DNA from: an uncultured delta proteobacterium | GTDB taxonomy: Bacteria; Desulfobacterota; Binatia; DP-6 | Reading direction: 5' to 3' | Length of the DNA: 64,000 nt | NCBI GenBank assembly: GCA_963815115.1 | Contig: CAWFFN010000009.1 | Coordinates: forward strand, 1,600,001 to 1,664,000 | In this document: positions 45,194-64,000 of the stretch, one piece after another | How positions within the stretch are numbered: the stretch's first letter is position 1 | Layout: every line of letters begins with the position of its first letter | The notes under the pieces: model-generated | What the model was told of the DNA's origin: nothing | Seen by the model: the letters and a program-made list of their open reading frames with translations, nothing else | Database searches by the model: none | Made by a program: the position numbers and the translations under genes

Positions 45194-45209
45194 TGGCACG
45201 CGGACTGCA
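45194..45209 (+). promoter_or_regulatory. Putative sigma54 (-24/-12) promoter
   Basis: TGGCACGCGGACTGCA = TGGCAC-N6-TGCA (GG-N10-GC), 31 nt before the ATG at 45241. Confidence 0.65.
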
Positions 45210-45240: not shown

Positions 45241-45639
45241 ATGAAGAGAGTTGCGAGGGAGAAGGAGGACCGACCCGGGCGTCTGTTGCGACTGGACACC
45301 ATCCTGCCGGAGCAGTTCTTCTCGCTGCGCGAGCAGCAAGGCTGGAGAGGTGAGCAGCGTCTGATGGCGGCCATTCTCGTCGATGCACTCGCCGTCTACT
45401 CCAGGCGCGCCGTACCCGGCGCGTCGGATGCCGGACACGTGCTGCGACAAACGCAGCACTGGCTCCGGAGCAACGATCGCACCTCGCCGTGCTCCTTCCT
45501 TCGCGTGTGCGAGGTGCTGGGACTGGAGCCGGATGCCGTCCGGCGCCATCTGCGCGACGGCGGTGGCGAGGAAGCGGCACAGGGTCGCAGCTTCGCATTC
45601 GCCCGCCTCAAGTCGCCACGCCGCCTGGTCGGGGGATGA
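45241..45639 (+). CDS. Conserved-looking hypothetical protein, 132 aa
   Basis: GGAGGAG RBS; DTILPEQFF...GEQRLMAAILVDA...WLRSND..PCSFLRVCEVLGLEPDAVR. Confidence 0.75.
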   Translation: MKRVAREKEDRPGRLLRLDTILPEQFFSLREQQGWRGEQRLMAAILVDALAVYSRRAVPGASDAGHVLRQTQHWLRSNDRTSPCSFLRVCEVLGLEPDAVRRHLRDGGGEEAAQGRSFAFARLKSPRRLVGG

Positions 45640-56710: not shown

Positions 56711-56875
56711 ATGGCGCAGGACCCGGTCGAAAAGGATTGCTGTCGCAGGACGAGAGAGCGGTGGGAGCGCCGCATCCGGGCGTACTATGCGTCCTTCCCC
56801 GTGATCAAGGACGTGCCGTGCGATACCTGTCGCGAGATCCTCGAGATCCGGGTCTTCGACGTGCCCGTGGCCTGA
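56711..56875 (+). CDS. 54-aa Cys-motif microprotein upstream of arsS (not in the ORF track)
   Basis: Manual translation MAQDPVEKDCCRRTRERWERRIRAYYASFPVIKDVPCDTCREILEIRVFDVPVA*; fills the gap, stop 17 nt before the arsS ATG. Confidence 0.65.
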   Translation: MAQDPVEKDCCRRTRERWERRIRAYYASFPVIKDVPCDTCREILEIRVFDVPVA

Positions 56876-56892
56876 CCCGAGGCACGAGCCGG

Positions 56893-57864
<972 letters not shown>

Positions 57865-57878
57865 GGGACGGCCCGCGC

Positions 57879-58565
57879 GTGCGGCTCTCGGTCATCATGC
57901 CGGTGCTCGACGAGGCGCAGCGCATCGGGAAGCGCCTGGTCGAGCTGCGCGCGCTGTCCGGCGTCGACGAGATCGTCGTCGTCGATGGGGGGAGCCGGGA
58001 CGGTACCGCCGACGCCGCGCGCAGCGTCCCCGGCGTCCGCGTGCTGGAGGCGCCGCGGGGACGCGGACCGCAGATGAACGCGGGCGCGAGGTCGGCAAGC
58101 GGCGACGTGCTGCTCTTCCTGCACGCCGACGTCTCCCTGCCGCCGGATGCCACCACCTGGGTGGCGCGCGCCCTCGCCGAGCCCGGCGTCGTCGCGGGCG
58201 CGTTCCGCATCCGCACTCGTGCCGACGGCGGCCGCAACTGGCTCGGGCCGTTGCTCCGGCTGGCGGACGTGCGCTCGCGCATGGCGAGGCTTCCGTACGG
58301 GGACCAGGCGGTCTTCCTGCGCCGCGAAACCTTCGAGCGCGCCGGTGGCTTTCCGGATCAGCCGCTGATGGAAGACGTCGAGCTGGCGCACCGCCTGCGC
58401 CGGCTCGGCCGCATCCGCATCGTGCCGGCCGTCGTGCAGGTATCGGCTCGCCGCTTCCTGGCGCGGCCGGTGCGGACGCTGCTCGCGATGCGGTTCTTCC
58501 CGGTGCTGTACCGGCTCGGCGTGTCGCCCGAGCTCCTCGCGCGGCTCTATGGAAGCCCGCGCTAG
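57879..58565 (+). CDS. TIGR04283-type (arsenosugar-associated) GT2 glycosyltransferase
   Basis: LSVIMPVLDE, VDGGSRDGT, GRGPQMNAGA, LFLHAD, PYGDQA, PLMEDVE, SARRF. Confidence 0.88.
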   Translation: MRLSVIMPVLDEAQRIGKRLVELRALSGVDEIVVVDGGSRDGTADAARSVPGVRVLEAPRGRGPQMNAGARSASGDVLLFLHADVSLPPDATTWVARALAEPGVVAGAFRIRTRADGGRNWLGPLLRLADVRSRMARLPYGDQAVFLRRETFERAGGFPDQPLMEDVELAHRLRRLGRIRIVPAVVQVSARRFLARPVRTLLAMRFFPVLYRLGVSPELLARLYGSPR

Positions 58566-58579
58566 CCCGGCAGATGCGG

Positions 58580-58966
58580 TCAGGCCTGCGCGGCCCAGCG
58601 CTGCGCGACGGGCGGCTCGACGTGATCGCAGATCGCCCCCAAGCCGTGCTCCCCGGTCCGCACCCGAACGGCATCGTGGACGGGAAGGATCATGACCTTT
58701 CCGTCGCCGACGCGGCCGGTGCGGGCTGCGTCGCTGATGGTGTACGCGGTCGGGATCGCGTCCTCGTCGCGGACGACGATCTCGAGCTTGAGCTTCGGGT
58801 GAAGGTCAATGCTGTAGGCGGTGCCACGGTAGCGGCCAAGACGGCACGCCTGGTGACCGTGCCCCAGGACCTCGGACACCGAAATACCCTCGACACCCCG
58901 GGCGACCAGCGAATCTCGCACTGCATCCAGCTTGAACGGGGCAATGATCGCTTCCACCTTCTTCAT
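58580..58966 (-). CDS. PII family signal transduction protein (divergent GlnB/GlnK-like)
   Basis: AAGGAG RBS; MKKVEAIIAPFKLD, YRGTAY, ARTGRVGDGKV, RVRTGE; C-terminal extension. Confidence 0.88.
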   Translation of the reverse strand: MKKVEAIIAPFKLDAVRDSLVARGVEGISVSEVLGHGHQACRLGRYRGTAYSIDLHPKLKLEIVVRDEDAIPTAYTISDAARTGRVGDGKVMILPVHDAVRVRTGEHGLGAICDHVEPPVAQRWAAQA

Positions 58967-59035
58967 CGGCGGTCTCCTTCGTGACGGGCCGGGTCGCGAC
59001 CCGCGCGACCCTCGTCGACCATTCGCACGAACGTT

Positions 59036-59051
59036 CGCACGAACCATGCCG
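59036..59051 (-). promoter_or_regulatory. Putative sigma54 promoter of the PII gene
   Basis: Minus strand CGGCATGGTTCGTGCG (GG-N10-GC), about 70 nt upstream of the ATG. Confidence 0.5.
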
Positions 59052-59248
59052 GGCCCTGGCGACGGAATTCCGGGGCTCGGGAGGTCTTGATCGTGTGGAA
59101 CGTTGCGTCTTGGAGCATCGCGGCATTGCGAGGTGAGGTCCCGCAGGACGCGTGACCGGGCATGCACAGTGTCAGGTCGGAATGCTGCAAGGTGCACGAT
59201 CGCCCGGGATCGCAGCCGAGAACGCGCCGGAAAATGGGCTCGTCGCAC

Positions 59249-59264
59249 TGGCACGGACGATGCT
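59249..59264 (+). promoter_or_regulatory. Putative sigma54 promoter of the response regulator
   Basis: TGGCACGGACGATGCT (GG-N10-GC), 36 nt before the ATG at 59301. Confidence 0.6.
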
Positions 59265-59300
59265 CACGGGCACAATGCCGATCGATGAGGTCCGTGGGAG

Positions 59301-60842
59301 ATGCAGCCCCGCGCGATCCCGTGGATAGAGACGCCTGCGTGCGACGCGGGGCTCCGCGGACGTCCCTCGGACGGCCGCTCGCGCGCGGCGGTCCTGATCG
59401 TCGATGACGAGGCAGACGTCCGGACGCAGCTCGCCGCCTCCCTCGATCGATACGGATGCGCGGTCGAGACCGCCGTGGACCTGCCGACCGCGCTCCGCTC
59501 ACTTGCGCTGCGGGCGTTCGACGTCGTCTTCGCAGACGTCCGCGTGGCGGGCATGGACGACGTCGCGCTGCTGAAGCAGGTGCGCGAGCGCCGTCCCGAT
59601 GCGGCCGTGGTGCCGATGACGGCGCACGCGACCGTCCCCCAGGCGGTGCACGCGATGCAGGCCGGTGCGTGCGACTATCTCGTGAAGCCGCTGGCCCCGG
59701 AGCTCGTCGAGCCCCTCCTGAGGCGCATCCTCGGGGTGAAGGCACCGTGCCCGGAAGAGCGTGCCGTCGGCGAAGCCCTCGAGTCGCTACGGATCCTGGA
59801 ATCGGCAACTCCGGCGATGCAGAGGGCGATCGCCACCGCGCGGCAGGTCGCGGCCTCCGACGTGCCCGTGCTCGTCACGGGCGAGAGCGGCACCGGCAAG
59901 AACGCGCTGGCGACCTACATCCATGCCTCGAGCCCCCGACGCCGGGAACCGTTCGCTACCATGTCCTGCACGGCCCTCGCCGATCATCTCGCCGAAGGCG
60001 AGTTCCTCGGGCAGGTGCAGGCCGCCTTCATCGATGCACGCAAGAACATGCCCGGCCCACCGGAGGAGGCAGGACTTCGCGGGACGCTCTTCCTCGACGA
60101 GGTGGGTGACGTCCCGCGGCAGGTCCAGGGAACGCTCCTCCGCTTCCTCGCCGAGCAGCGCTCCCCGCGCGTCGGGGCCGCCGACAGCATCGCGGTGGGT
60201 GCACGCGTCATTGCGGCCACGAACCGTGATCTGGAGGCGGAGGTGTCGGCCGGCCGTTTCCGAGAGGATCTCCTCTTCCGGCTGAACGTGGTCACGATCG
60301 CGTTGCCGCCCCTGCGCGAGCGACCGGAGGACCTCCTGGCGCTCACCGACCACGTCCTCACGCGGCTCGCTGCCCGCTACCACCGGGGTCCGGTCCGGCT
60401 CGCTCCCGAGGTCCGACTGATCCTCGCCGCCCACCGATGGCCGGGAAACGCGCGTGAGCTCGTGAACGTGCTCGAGCGGGCCCTGGTGCTGTCGCGTGGG
60501 GACACGATCACCCGGGAGGACCTACCCGACCGGTTGCTCGCGGGCTCGACGCCCGATGACGCCGACACAGCCCTCACGATGCTCTCGCTCGAGGAGCTCG
60601 AGCGCCGCCACATCGAGCGCGTGCTCGCGGACTCCGGGACGCTCGAGGAGGCCGCCGCCCGTCTCGGCATCAACCCGACGACCCTCTGGCGAAAGCGCAA
60701 GCGGTACCGCCTGCGGACCGCTGCAACTCCGGACCCCCCTCACGCCCGGACGAGCGGCCACCGCCGCCCGCGGCAAGGACCGCGACCCGACCGGGACCCG
60801 ACCAATCCGGGTGCCGACTCGGATGACGGATCGCTCCCCTAG
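59301..60842 (+). CDS. NtrC/AlgB-type response regulator (REC-AAA+-HTH) with a degenerate GAFTGA loop
   Basis: LIVDDE, FADVRVAGMD, Walker A GESGTGKN, Walker B FLDEVG, IAATNRDL, FREDLLFRL, WPGNAREL, HTH AAARLGINPTTLWRKRK. Confidence 0.9.
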   Translation: MQPRAIPWIETPACDAGLRGRPSDGRSRAAVLIVDDEADVRTQLAASLDRYGCAVETAVDLPTALRSLALRAFDVVFADVRVAGMDDVALLKQVRERRPDAAVVPMTAHATVPQAVHAMQAGACDYLVKPLAPELVEPLLRRILGVKAPCPEERAVGEALESLRILESATPAMQRAIATARQVAASDVPVLVTGESGTGKNALATYIHASSPRRREPFATMSCTALADHLAEGEFLGQVQAAFIDARKNMPGPPEEAGLRGTLFLDEVGDVPRQVQGTLLRFLAEQRSPRVGAADSIAVGARVIAATNRDLEAEVSAGRFREDLLFRLNVVTIALPPLRERPEDLLALTDHVLTRLAARYHRGPVRLAPEVRLILAAHRWPGNARELVNVLERALVLSRGDTITREDLPDRLLAGSTPDDADTALTMLSLEELERRHIERVLADSGTLEEAAARLGINPTTLWRKRKRYRLRTAATPDPPHARTSGHRRPRQGPRPDRDPTNPGADSDDGSLP

Positions 60843-60880
60843 AGCGGTCGGTCCAGGTCGCGACGGAGGCGAGGAATCCG

Positions 60881-61093
60881 ATGCTGGACGACGTCACGCT
60901 GCCCGTGCTGATGTGGCTCGGCGTGGGCGTCGGATACGCATGGTCGGTCTGGATGCTGCAGAGGCTCTGGCACCACGTTCCACCCGAGCGGTCCCTTCGC
61001 GGCGAGTCGAAGGTCGTCTATCTGAACGGTCGCTCCCGCTCGCAAGCAGGCCGTCTGGCGGCCAAGGAACGGAACCTGGCGATTCGTGGCTGA
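60881..61093 (+). CDS. Small single-TM membrane protein, 70 aa
   Basis: GGAGG/GAGGA RBS; LPVLMWLGVGVGYAWSVWML helix, basic tail. Confidence 0.55.
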   Translation: MLDDVTLPVLMWLGVGVGYAWSVWMLQRLWHHVPPERSLRGESKVVYLNGRSRSQAGRLAAKERNLAIRG

Positions 61094-61107
61094 CAGGGAG
61101 GTCGCCC

Positions 61108-61326
61108 GTGAGACAGGTCGAACCGGTCATCCGTCGGCGCGGTGCCGATAGCCGTCCCAGCATGGCGGACATGAGCAAGGTCATCCTGATGAACGTCGTG
61201 CTCGCGACGGCCTTCCTGGTCTTCTTCTTCCACGCGCCGCTCACGTACGCTGCCCTCGGTGCGGGAACTGCCGGCTTCATCCTGTGGGCCCGCGAACGGC
61301 GCCTGCAGGCACGTCGCACGCGTTGA
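61108..61326 (+). CDS. Small two-TM membrane protein, about 72 aa
   Basis: GGGAGG RBS plus GTG; VILMNVVLATAFLVFFF and LTYAALGAGTAGFILW helices. Confidence 0.55.
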   Translation: MRQVEPVIRRRGADSRPSMADMSKVILMNVVLATAFLVFFFHAPLTYAALGAGTAGFILWARERRLQARRTR

Positions 61327-61383
61327 TTTCGCCTCTCGGCGTGACCTGCCCACCCGGGCGCCCTGCCGTCGGCAAGGGCGACC

Positions 61384-62805
61384 TCACTTCTTCTTCTGGT
61401 TGCCCACGCGCGTCTGCGGCAGCTCGCGACTCTGCTTGCGGAAGTAGCAGATCTCCACCAGCGTCGGCCACAGCTCGAGGGCGCTGCGGATGTCGCCGAC
61501 CACGTCGTCCACGATCCGGCTGAGGTTCTGCTGGAAGAAGTCGGCCTCGAAGCCGTAGAAGGCCTTCTCCAGGTTGCAGGCGAACCGCTCCAGAACGTCG
61601 CGCCGCTCCGCGTTGGCCGTGGCCGCGGCGGCCGCGAGGGCGCGGCGGTGGATGGCGGTGATGCGCTCGAGGATCTGCTCGCTGTCCTGCGCCGTCACCT
61701 CGCCCTCGTAGCCGAACTCGATGCCCAGGTCGTCCACCCGCTGGCAGCTCGCCTTGATCTTCCGCTTGAGCAGGTTCGCCACCTCCTCGTTGAAGACCTC
61801 GAACGGCAGCGGGTGCCGCATGTAGTTGTTCTTGATGTGGGTCTGCGCCGCGTCCACGTGCGCCGCGACCATGCCGGGCTGCTGGATCCACAAGCGGTAG
61901 ATGTAATCCTCGAAGCGCAGCCGGGTGGGGAAGAACGGCGGCAGCCCGACGCTGTTGTCGTAGCCGGCCACGCCGCAGTCCATCCGCCAGTTCCGGTTCG
62001 TGAGCGCCGGGCGGAAGTTCACCAGGACGTACACGTCGTTCACGTGGTCGAGGTTGGTCTGGTTCTCGTCGTCGAGAAACAGCTCCACGAAGTACAGGGC
62101 GTCGATGTCGCTGGTCCCGCTGCGGAAGGTCTGGGCCATCTTGACGGTCGCGCTGCGCGCGACCTTCCCCTTCTGGAGGATCAGCGAGTTCTCGCGCACC
62201 AGCCCGAGGTTCGCGTTGGTCTCCAGGTCCATCGCGCTGTCGCTGACGAGCTCCCCCTTGGCGAAGTTCTCGGGGACGTCGGCGACCTTCTTGCCGATGA
62301 CGTCGCCGAACGACGAGAGGATGTCGAACGGCCGGCGGGTGTAGCCGTTCACGGTCGCCTTGAGCAGCTTGCCCCGGCTGATCTCGTCGGCCGCCAGCGA
62401 TTCCGGGCTGTCCTCGATGAGCCCGTGCGGCCGCATGTCGTCGTCGGCGCTGACCACGTGGCTGCCGAGGGTGTAGATCAGCGCGAAGTTCCGGTTGCCG
62501 CCGTAGCTCGGCCGGAAGAGGTTGCGCACCGCGGCCTCGAGCTTCCGGTCCCGCAGCCGCCGGTTGAGCAGGGAGCAAAACGCCTCCTTCTCTCGGGGCC
62601 CGACGTAGAAGAGCTCGCTCCACGTGCGGGTCTTCTCCAGCAACGGGTAGTACTTCTCGTGGTTGGCCACGCTCGAGTCGTCGAAGACGATGATGCGCGG
62701 CGAGTGGCCGTTGTTCCAGAAATTCTCGTCGTACGTTCCCACCGTCTCGCACACGTCGCGGAGACGGTAGGTCGGGATGACGAAGATCAGCTCGTGGTCT
62801 GGCAT
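61384..62805 (-). CDS. Uncharacterised GT-A-fold (DxD) protein downstream of kdpC
   Basis: FVIPTYR, IIVFDDS, SYGGNRN, SADDD, LPPFFP..RFED; strong coding bias. Confidence 0.8.
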   Translation of the reverse strand: MPDHELIFVIPTYRLRDVCETVGTYDENFWNNGHSPRIIVFDDSSVANHEKYYPLLEKTRTWSELFYVGPREKEAFCSLLNRRLRDRKLEAAVRNLFRPSYGGNRNFALIYTLGSHVVSADDDMRPHGLIEDSPESLAADEISRGKLLKATVNGYTRRPFDILSSFGDVIGKKVADVPENFAKGELVSDSAMDLETNANLGLVRENSLILQKGKVARSATVKMAQTFRSGTSDIDALYFVELFLDDENQTNLDHVNDVYVLVNFRPALTNRNWRMDCGVAGYDNSVGLPPFFPTRLRFEDYIYRLWIQQPGMVAAHVDAAQTHIKNNYMRHPLPFEVFNEEVANLLKRKIKASCQRVDDLGIEFGYEGEVTAQDSEQILERITAIHRRALAAAAATANAERRDVLERFACNLEKAFYGFEADFFQQNLSRIVDDVVGDIRSALELWPTLVEICYFRKQSRELPQTRVGNQKKK

Positions 62806-62877: not shown

Positions 62878-63453
62878 TCACTTGGTCCCGAGTGCGTCCA
62901 GCGCCAGGTTGAGGGAGAGGACGTCGACGACGGGCTCGCCGAGGATGCCCCACTGCCGGCCGCGAGTGTACCGGGCCACCAGCCCCTGGACCGTTGCCTC
63001 GGACAGGCCGCGCGCCCGTGCCACGCGGCCGACCTGATAGCGGGCGGCTGCCGGGCTGATGTTCGGGTCGAGGCCGCTTCCCGAGGCCGTCACGAGGTCC
63101 ACGGGGACGGGGAGCGGGTTGGCCGGATCGGCGGCCTTGAGAGCGTCCAGCCGGCCACGGACCGCGTCGAGCAGCGTGTCGCTCAGCGGGCCCTGGTTCG
63201 ACCCCGACGACGCCGCGCCGTTGTAGGGCTGGGGTGACGTCGCGGAGAGCCGGCTCCAGAAGTACTTCGGGTCGTCGAACGGCTGTCCGATGAGGCTGGA
63301 CCCGACGGCCTTCCCATCCTGCACGAGCACGCTGCCGTTCGCCTGTGCGGGGAAGAATACCTGTGCGACGCCGGTCACGAGGAGCGGATACACGATGCCC
63401 GTGAGCACCGTCATGAGGACGAAGGCGATGAGGGCGGGGCGGAGTTGGTTCAT
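62878..63453 (-). CDS. kdpC: K+-transporting ATPase subunit C
   Basis: [51 protein letters not shown]. Confidence 0.97.
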
Positions 63454-63471: not shown

Positions 63472-64000
63472 TCAGGCGAGACCGAGCGCGGACAGCGCCA
63501 TGTCGATGGCCTTGATGCCGATGAAGGGCGCGATGATGCCGCCGAGGCCGTAGACGAGCAGGTTGTCGCGCAGCAGGGTCGAGGCCCCGACGTGCCGGTA
63601 GCGCACGCCGCGCAGCGCGAGCGGGATCAGCGCGATGATGATGAGGGCGTTGAAGATCACCGCCGACAGGATGGCGCTCTGCGGCGTCCTGAGGCCCATC
63701 ACGTTGAGCCTGCTCAGCACCGGATAGGTGCTCGCGAACGCGGCGGGGATGATCGCGAAGTACTTCGCGACGTCGTTGGCGATGCTGAAGGTGGTCAGCG
63801 AGCCGCGGGTCATGAGGAGCTGCTTCCCGATCTCGACGATCTCGATCAGCTTGGTGGGGTTGGAGTCGAGGTCGACCAGGTTGCCGGCTTCCTTGGCAGC
63901 CTGGGTCCCCGTGTTCATGGCGACGGCGACGTCCGCCTGGGCCAGCGCGGGCGCGTCGTTGGTGCCGTCGCCCGTCATGGCGATCAGCCGGCCGCCGCGC
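63472..64000 (-). CDS. kdpB: K+-transporting ATPase subunit B (3' part only)
   Basis: [49 protein letters not shown]. Confidence 0.97.

Follow-up and report, generated by a model that had tools for sequence, protein, structure and literature searches.

PII proteins are classic integrators of carbon, nitrogen and energy state, and PII-type genes can lie beside the transporter that they control (for example, GlnK with AmtB and SbtB with SbtA); to our knowledge, the outputs of these proteins do not include the Kdp pump, for which the textbook mode of control is KdpD/KdpE with a sigma-70 promoter. Enhancer-binding proteins contact sigma-54 through their GAFTGA loop, and R. capsulatus NtrC and TyrR are NtrC-family regulators that lack this loop and work without sigma-54. 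The same is reported for the NtrC-family regulators V. cholerae VpsR (PMC6158489) and Caulobacter NtrC (10.1101/2023.06.06.543975), and the E. coli KdpD/KdpE pair is mentioned together with kdpFABC in a further source (PMC3162934). Here we analyse a 64,000-nucleotide stretch of DNA (hereafter, the window; positions 1,600,001 to 1,664,000 of contig CAWFFN010000009.1, assembly GCA_963815115.1) from an uncultured delta proteobacterium, in which a gene for a PII-family protein and a gene for a GAFTGA-less NtrC-family response regulator are found next to a kdp operon. Both genes can be envisioned as a regulatory appendix of a sigma-54-dependent Kdp (that is, K+-uptake ATPase) regulon, an interpretation on which we find ourselves evenly divided. 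With confidence and doubt again in balance, we take the regulator to be an activation-dead competitor or anti-activator of this regulon and the PII protein to be one of its effectors. The family holding this regulon consists of uncultured bacteria from soil, whose closest database relatives are labelled Candidatus Binatia by their sources.

Along the minus strand of the window (which lies on contig C9 of its genome, G000; other G and L numbers denote related genomes and fetched loci), kdpB, kdpC and a gene termed unk473 are followed by the regulator gene on the plus strand and then by the PII gene on the minus strand (Table 1). As with GlnK–AmtB and SbtB–SbtA, a small PII-fold gene appears to end a transporter operon and to be co-regulated with it, the differences being that the transporter here is a P-type K+ ATPase and that unk473 usually lies between the pump and PII genes. 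No amtB or glnA gene is adjacent to the PII gene, whose neighbours are kdpCB, unk473, the regulator gene, a glycosyltransferase gene and ArsS, and no cognate kinase is encoded in the window; an initial annotation, made from the sequence of the window, was right on both points, and the link to kdp that it had put forward tentatively now has strong support, both from gene order in three families of the class and from a shared promoter architecture.

The regulator matches Response_reg (PF00072, 80 bits), Sigma54_activat (PF00158, 169 bits), AAA_lid_14 and HTH_8 in Pfam, and comprises a receiver (residues 28–145), an AAA+ domain (169–335), a lid (339–420), a helix-turn-helix (HTH; 429–469) and an unconserved tail (473–513). 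Its receiver is intact (acidic pocket DD, phospho-Asp in FADV, the Thr of MT and the Lys of VKP), with the same motifs present in most of 13 core relatives, and so is its AAA+ domain (Walker A GESGTGK, Walker B LFLDEV, arginine-finger block GRFREDLLFRLNV and sensor II RELV). The canonical ESELFGHxKGAFTGA has become EGEFLGQVQAAFIDA, with AAFIDA in the place of GAFTGA. Reading of the alignment together with Pfam thus bears out the initial annotation, which had described a regulator that keeps its phospho-Asp, Walker motifs, arginine finger and HTH with a degenerate sigma-54 contact loop. In a comparison set of 120 sequences (that is, the query and 119 database relatives), the nearest relatives are P0122 (80% identity) and five proteins at 60–65%, each of them without GAFTGA and with a differing sequence at this site, and approximately 110 of the 120, more distant (57–63% identical, many labelled AlgB by the Joint Genome Institute), carry GAFTGA or a one-residue variant of it. 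When fetched loci are added to the database sequences, GAFTGA is absent from all 15 closest relatives, in each by a different lesion (substitutions, unrelated sequence or, in G014, an 18-column deletion). Given that all 15 lack the motif, loss of the sigma-54 contact is a trait of the lineage rather than a one-off lesion, which is not the pattern of a decaying copy among intact orthologues that the initial annotation had considered.

A quick maximum-likelihood tree of bacterial enhancer-binding proteins (bEBPs; 55 rows) places the 13 core GAFTGA-less proteins in one clade (support 91 in the Shimodaira–Hasegawa-like approximate likelihood-ratio test, SH-aLRT) inside a starred group (99) within the KdpD-linked family. 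The full set of 15 GAFTGA-less proteins falls on one side of a branch with a support of 34; because this support is so low, a single loss of GAFTGA is allowed by the tree rather than established, and the lineage is consistent with such a loss. The 13 core members have kept the Walker A, Walker B and arginine-finger motifs and, in all but two, the acidic pocket, and they share the DNA-recognition helix of the KdpD-linked activator exactly or almost exactly. Phylogenetically, the window regulator is a member of a GAFTGA-less paralogue lineage of the KdpD-linked activator. G000 itself encodes 34 bEBP-type matches, the closest paralogue among which is only 43% identical to the window regulator. 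The available labels are automatic: AlgB (that of many of the homologues) and AtoC (the best NCBIfam model) share with the regulator a receiver, an AAA+ domain and a Fis-type HTH, but it reaches 341 bits against a cut-off of 714 for AtoC, and neither a KinB-type nor an alginate context accompanies it.

The superfamilies of both proteins are known ones, and NtrC relatives without GAFTGA have precedents. As in VpsR, Caulobacter NtrC, R. capsulatus NtrC and TyrR, the sigma-54 loop has been lost and the DNA-binding and ATPase core kept; in contrast to these, the window regulator is a recent paralogue of an intact activator found in the same genomes, with the same DNA-reading helix, its gene has a predicted sigma-54 promoter and its loop differs in every relative. 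The known cases frame an alternative in which the regulator is a sigma-70-type transcription factor with a regulon of its own, activating or repressing by DNA binding and oligomerization, and the PII gene is one of its targets. Loss of GAFTGA with retention of the receiver, ATPase core and HTH is the pattern of such NtrC-family regulators, the constraint on the regulator persists over long divergence and its gene adjoins the PII gene in nine of nine known contexts. However, the regulator has the HTH of the sigma-54 activator, from which common binding sites would be expected and not distinct ones, and the conserved promoter motifs of the spacer are all of the sigma-54 type, with no sigma-70 promoter found between 58300 and 61500 by a scan with the E. 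coli consensus, which may miss promoters of this high-GC organism. We consider this alternative unlikely, while giving it some weight.

The PII protein is a clear family member (Pfam P-II, PF00543, 84.2 bits against a cut-off of 25, residues 1–106) that falls below both NCBIfam equivalogs for GlnB/GlnK (NF008111, 101.4 against 202; NF007946, 91.9 against 181). It keeps Y46-R47-G48, Y51, K58, the B-loop TGRVGDGK and the C-loop RVRTGE, and thereby the nucleotide-site motifs TGxxGDGK and RxRTGE. The base of the T-loop reads GHGHQACRLGR, where the canonical form is GFGRQKG (F36 has become H, R38 H and K40 A; Q39 is kept, in contrast to the E found at this position in most members of the clade described below), H56 replaces the L56 of GlnB/GlnK, and a 16-residue C-terminal tail has been added, for which the conserved form in the subfamily is HDHVEPPVxxRWAAxG. 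These features, too, agree with the divergent PII of the initial annotation, which had noted the altered T-loop base, the tail and the conserved Tyr51, Lys58, B-loop and C-loop. A length of 128 residues, H56, the tail and a T-loop base that varies are common to approximately 55 database clusters. In a quick 73-row tree, 37 proteins of this subfamily group in one clade (SH-aLRT 100), which arises from within ordinary GlnB/GlnK proteins and has a stem of 0.8 changes per site, and the core residues are invariant and the added tail conserved across at least 37 distinct members. By its phylogeny, this PII is a monophyletic, fast-evolving offshoot of GlnB/GlnK. Among 60 related genomes, members of the clade occur in one, G001 (same genus), which has two copies. 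A model of the monomer has a predicted local distance difference test (pLDDT) score of 66 and is uninformative for the T-loop and tail, where the score is below 50.

Could this protein be an ordinary nitrogen regulator with GlnB/GlnK function that lies near kdp by chance? It has approximately 55% identity to ordinary PII proteins, with which it shares the P-II domain over residues 1–106, the YRG apex, Y51, K58 and the B- and C-loops; its closest solved structure is GlnB entry 2eg1 (E = 3.6e-35), with E. coli GlnB and GlnK lower on the list, and a GlnD-type enzyme that could act on Y51 is encoded in the genome. We nevertheless regard this explanation as very improbable: G000 already encodes three ordinary PII genes (110–117 bits against the Pfam model) and a split one, the window protein fails both equivalog cut-offs and stands on the long stem of a separate clade rather than with canonical GlnB/GlnK, no amtB or glnA is adjacent, and its association with kdp is found again and again, across three families of the class. 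The protein also differs from GlnB/GlnK in a ratio of non-synonymous to synonymous substitution rates (dN/dS) of 0.2–0.4, in being encoded with kdp and in having a kdp-type predicted promoter. Given that G000 encodes the GlnD-type enzyme and two diadenylate cyclases, modification of Y51 or an input from cyclic di-AMP may be possible for this PII.

Some further PII genes were seen on the way. One subclade of the same subfamily (L119, L143, L144, L175, L191, L199 and L150) lies between a hemerythrin gene and a 106-residue YnfA/UPF0060-like membrane gene, close to an alpha/beta hydrolase gene; this subclade has a sigma-54-type motif of its own (position 10030 of L119). A very degenerate PII-like gene in another family (L274, 7363–7722, in G041; L275, 11794–12126, in G057) is located between kdpC and unk473; it lacks the YRG T-loop apex, the GDGK B-loop and RxRTGE, and sits on a branch of 1.35 changes per site. 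Unrelated PII genes with H56 and a C-terminal extension (L129, L162, L197, L200 and similar) are 39–47% identical to the window PII.

Synteny was followed with a clade-specific DNA pattern scan of metagenome contigs and in fetched genome regions; the pattern also matched approximately 60 unrelated PII genes with H56, which were excluded from the counts. The PII gene, kdp and unk473 are linked in G000, G001, G010, G041, G057 and G060 and on contigs L127, L134, L158, L180 and L194, and the PII subfamily is, by gene neighbourhood, a kdp-linked one. Four arrangements can be distinguished, three of them with unk473 (arrowheads give the direction of the genes): unk473>, <regulator, PII> (type I; the window and L134), unk473>, PII>, regulator> (type II; G001 and L180) and unk473>, PII> with no regulator gene (type III; L127, L158 and L194). 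The fourth consists of divergent PII/regulator pairs on short contigs (L183, L193 and L130). Other orders occur within this family: next to kdp, G010 carries PII>, unk473>, regulator>, and G014 has <kdpBA, regulator>, PII>, kdpAB>, in which the PII gene adjoins kdp without unk473. In other families the orders are kdpABC>, degenerate PII>, unk473> (G041), the same with unk473 5 kb beyond (G057), and PII>, unk473>, <kdpCBA (G060). A 684-residue frame in G001 that might pass for a PII–regulator fusion is no more than a stretch of high-GC DNA without stop codons, with the two proteins encoded separately.

This arrangement bears on a further alternative, a partner switch in which the PII protein binds the receiver or AAA+ domain of the regulator and sets its oligomeric or DNA-binding state, so that the two form one sensor. 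PII partners of this kind are known (GlnB with NtrB, PII with NifA), the GAFTGA-less genes with known context all lie within one gene of a PII gene (9/9), and both proteins evolve fast, as co-evolving partners may. But adjacency of genes is by itself weak evidence of binding, and on the three type III contigs and in the hemerythrin/YnfA-like context the regulator is missing beside PII genes of this subfamily. We therefore hold such a switch to be rather improbable.

The recurrent neighbour unk473 has no Pfam or NCBIfam match, and none of its more than 2,400 database homologues is annotated; it is 67–69% identical to Sorangium proteins. Within the class it occurs in 5 of 151 genomes, nearly always adjoining kdp and the PII gene. 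Its structural model is poor (mean pLDDT 56.5), a Foldseek search of the model against PDB gave nothing at E ≤ 0.001 and the hints of a fold are weak (GT-A-type over approximately 135 N-terminal residues, for example, mannosyl-3-phosphoglycerate synthase 2wvm, E = 0.34); an atlas look-up gave unnamed clusters and a DUF6271 lead only.

The intact-GAFTGA homologues of the regulator point to a source of signal. In relatives, these genes, whose products are 55–61% identical to the window regulator, stand directly after a kinase gene, the product of which has GAF-PAS-HisKA-HATPase domains in six of six cases by Pfam. In G003, G001 and G041 this kinase is a full KdpD (approximately 1,000 residues; KdpD_N, Usp, DUF4118, GAF and kinase domains) encoded after kdpABC, and in G010 the intact-GAFTGA gene directly follows kdpC; in none of the fetched loci did an OmpR-type KdpE appear behind KdpD. 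Given that intact-GAFTGA genes directly follow KdpD or kinase genes, we suggest that the partner of KdpD in this family is an NtrC-type activator. The sensor has the domains and the place after kdpABC known from E. coli, whereas its partner is NtrC-type rather than OmpR-type, the kdp promoters are of a predicted −24/−12 type, and several kdp operons per genome are combined with PII, unk473 and GAFTGA-less genes. Three of the four genomes with a GAFTGA-less gene (G001, G010 and G014) also have the intact-GAFTGA paralogue, which in the fourth, G000, is present but frameshifted. G000 has three kdp operons within 35 kb, and kdpD with an intact-GAFTGA regulator gene comes after the third alone (contig C9, 1690935–1695300; L124, 4926–9298), approximately 27–31 kb past the end of the window. 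The likely kinase for the window regulator is this KdpD, 27 kb away.

Two observations concern the other kdp operons of G000. The second (L123, C9 1663001–1675000), which is divergent, encodes an enlarged KdpC (357 residues) and then a 119-residue YnfA/UPF0060-like membrane protein, so that a small gene of the same type is found after kdpC of this operon and beside the hemerythrin-context PII subclade. Before kdpA of the first operon (also on L123) there are two micro-open reading frames of approximately 30 residues, one KdpF-like and one extra.

The 334-bp spacer between the PII and regulator genes also points to kdp. A looser sigma-54 pattern derived from relatives, YGGCAYGNNNNNTGCD, which replaced the strict consensus, has three matches in the window against 1.11 expected, two of them in this spacer and each facing its gene; the strict consensus with up to two mismatches gave 10 matches against 17 expected and found the regulator promoter while missing the PII promoter. 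In ten related loci oriented toward the PII gene, [C/T]GGCA[C/T]G-N4-NTGCG lies 50–90 nt before the PII ATG without exception (10/10), a GAAGGAG Shine–Dalgarno sequence or a one-base variant is likewise present (10/10), and the promoter motif recurs at the second clade copy of G001 (L119). TGGCA[C/T]-N5-NTGCT precedes the regulator gene in five of five divergent loci, with equivalents in L118, L180 and L260. The two genes have conserved predicted sigma-54 promoters of the kdp type, and the back-to-back arrangement proposed by the initial annotation is upheld by this conservation. Within fetched DNA, a sigma-54 motif stands before 12 of 12 kdp operon starts (11 found by regular expression and 1, one base off, by eye), and the PII promoter region can be aligned with the promoter regions of the first kdp operons of G000 and G001, including an upstream element approximately 60 nt before the −24. 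One copy of rpoN is present in G000. The third match to the looser pattern, TGGCACGCGGACTGCA, is found elsewhere in the window, at 45194–45209 (+), 33 nt before an ATG at 45242.

Within the spacer, the direct repeat that the initial annotation had placed over the PII start region is present (TTCGCACGAAC at 59022–59032 and again at 59034–59044), but as a duplication of the −12 region of the PII promoter rather than an operator over the start; it is seen in 1 of the 10 related loci, the window, and the other nine have a single copy. The dyad that it had reported near 59186 is likewise there (TGCAAGGTGCAC, 59186–59197). At this position lies the single match of the window to GTGCANCNTGCA (0.08 expected), a slightly looser form of which has a background of 0.015 per kb, as counted over a million bases from loci that are unrelated. 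Motifs of this type occur approximately 40–240 nt upstream of kdp sigma-54 promoters in G003 (two), on contig 8 of G001 (two to three) and in G014 (two), and also in L134, L127 and L158, which suggests an enhancer-like site.

Table 1 Features of the PII–regulator–kdp region, in window coordinates.
Feature	Position	Strand	Basis or remark
PII-family gene, 128 aa, start MKKVEAII, Kdp-linked subfamily	58580..58966	−	Pfam P-II, alignment, tree
12-bp tandem duplication, ATTCGCACGAAC / GTTCGCACGAAC on + strand	59021..59044		Duplicates −12 region of PII promoter
Predicted sigma-54-type promoter of PII gene, CGGCATGGTTCGTGCG	59036..59051	−	70 nt before ATG; GG-N10-GC spacing
Conserved upstream element, TCGCAATGCCGCGATGCTCCAAGACGCAA	59103..59131	−	Approximately 60 nt before the PII promoter −24
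Enhancer-like site, GTGCACCTTGCA (initial annotation, TGCAAGGTGCA)	59186..59197	−	Motif match; between the two promoters
Predicted sigma-54-type promoter of regulator gene, TGGCACGGACGATGCT	59249..59264	+	37 nt before ATG
Regulator gene, 513 aa, GAFTGA-less NtrC-family response regulator	59301..60842	+	Pfam, alignment
Degenerate L1 loop, AAFIDA replacing GAFTGA	60021..60038	+	Sequence, alignment
unk473, 473-aa gene, last of kdpFABC unit	61384..62805	−	Highly conserved; recurrent neighbour of PII gene
kdpC of first kdp operon	62878..63453	−	
kdpB of first kdp operon, 3′ part	63472..64000	−	Runs off window

Taken with these promoters, the pair suggests a scheme of negative feedback. Under K+ limitation, KdpD would phosphorylate the intact activator, which would turn on the kdp operons, the PII gene and the gene for the GAFTGA-less paralogue; the paralogue would then occupy the same enhancer sites or enter mixed hexamers. 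Since remodelling of the sigma-54 holoenzyme should not be possible for a protein without the contact loop, the paralogue may damp the regulon as an anti-activator. The PII protein, in turn, may act post-translationally on a component of the regulon (that is, the KdpFABC pump, unk473 or KdpD) and report the state of energy or metabolites by way of its nucleotide site, a site that the G000 copy has kept. In its full form, with a GlnB/GlnK-derived PII as dedicated post-translational regulator of the Kdp pump, KdpD or unk473 and a GAFTGA-less anti-activator as brake in a sigma-54/KdpD/NtrC-type regulon, we offer the scheme tentatively, as a possibility that is somewhat more doubtful than its parts. 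In open-access full text, PMC3162934, PMC12316311 and PMC9062700 among it, we found no case in which KdpD has an NtrC-type partner and kdp is under sigma-54 promoters, no GlnB/GlnK-derived PII subfamily in kdp loci and no activation-dead paralogue beside them. Nor did this literature yield a paper that links energy or metabolite sensing to K+ uptake in such a way, that presents an enhancer-binding protein turned against its own family or that gives unk473 a functional lead.

Selection on the two genes was estimated with a Nei–Gojobori script, and the ratios are rough, with dS partly saturated and GC content at third codon positions extreme. The dN/dS of the PII gene is 0.21–0.41 (0.56 in one near-identical pair) and that of the regulator gene 0.26–0.53, well short of the value of approximately 1 that decay would give; for unk473 it is 0.10–0.18 and for kdpC and the glycosyltransferase gene 0.14 each. 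By these ratios, constraint on the PII and regulator genes is real, if relaxed. In three of four comparisons, no structured domain of the regulator has a higher dN than the L1-loop segment (range 0.39–0.80), and the HTH is 67–80% identical, against 54–57% for the whole protein, and shows the tightest constraint (dN/dS 0.11–0.20) in the two deepest comparisons.

Several findings weigh against the proposed appendix of the Kdp regulon. Both trees on which the lineages rest are quick searches. The copy of the regulator in G010 has also lost the arginine-finger block and the HTH, that of G014 carries the deletion, and the sensor II Arg is lost in L118 and L180, so that decay does occur in the GAFTGA-less lineage. 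The three type III contigs (L127, L158 and L194) keep the PII gene with no regulator gene at the site, which implies that the regulator is dispensable for the PII. In several subclades K90 of the PII ATP site has been replaced, and in some the B-loop itself is altered. The motif GTGCANCNTGCA was not found upstream of the promoters of the first and second kdp operons of G000 itself. Of the listed sequencing runs, none exceeds 12% (0.12) of sampled words and none is on record as RNA. Constraint on the PII and regulator genes is two to four times weaker than on their neighbours. Finally, relative to G003, G000 has 15 frameshifting indels in kdpD and 11 in the intact-GAFTGA gene, all single-base; the adjacent kdpC of G000 has none, and two kdpB indels are on the side of G003. 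The 26 indels reflect either genuine decay of the sensor and activator genes or poor polishing of this part of a long-read assembly; if they are real, the paralogue would lack an activator as competitor, and the sigma-54 promoters would lack an obvious protein to switch them on.

Part of this evidence speaks for an alternative in which a Kdp control module was duplicated and the two genes are its decaying remains, without function in G000. The high dN/dS relative to the neighbours, an L1 loop that drifts freely, the lesions of G010 and G014, the absence of the regulator gene from three close relatives, the patchiness of a PII clade found in 1 of 60 relatives and the broken appearance of kdpD and the intact-GAFTGA gene in G000 would all fit. 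Against decay, both frames are open and full-length in G000 and nearly all relatives, none of the comparisons gives a dN/dS anywhere near 1, the PII clade has conserved its tail and core residues, the promoters, Shine–Dalgarno sequences and upstream elements are kept across 10 loci, and the HTH is the most strongly held part of the regulator over the deepest divergences. Functionless leftovers are, in our judgement, quite improbable.

The remainder of the region holds some features of its own. A 224-residue open reading frame from 59254 is a spurious longer version of the PII frame. Convergent with the PII gene, an arsenosugar-type pair lies at 56737–58565 (+) and encodes a radical-SAM ArsS (TIGR04167, 434 bits) and a glycosyltransferase (TIGR04283, 220 bits), the latter being again the downstream neighbour of the PII gene on contigs L127 and L194. 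Between the convergent ends of the regulator gene and unk473 there is a gap of 540 bp (60843–61383) with a 70-codon open reading frame that includes a hydrophobic stretch (60881–61093); on contig L134 the two genes are only approximately 40 bp apart. No Rfam match was found between 56000 and 64000 of the window.

If the proposed model is true, PII signalling would gain a direct output in K+ homeostasis, and with it a testable link between the sensing of energy or metabolites and the uptake of K+. The regulator would be a natural case of an enhancer-binding protein turned antagonist of its own family, and for unk473 and its more than 2,400 unannotated homologues the locus would offer a first clue to function. 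In an entire family of bacteria, Kdp appears to be under the control of sigma-54 and an NtrC-type regulator, to which a PII offshoot, unk473 and an activation-dead copy of the activator have been added.

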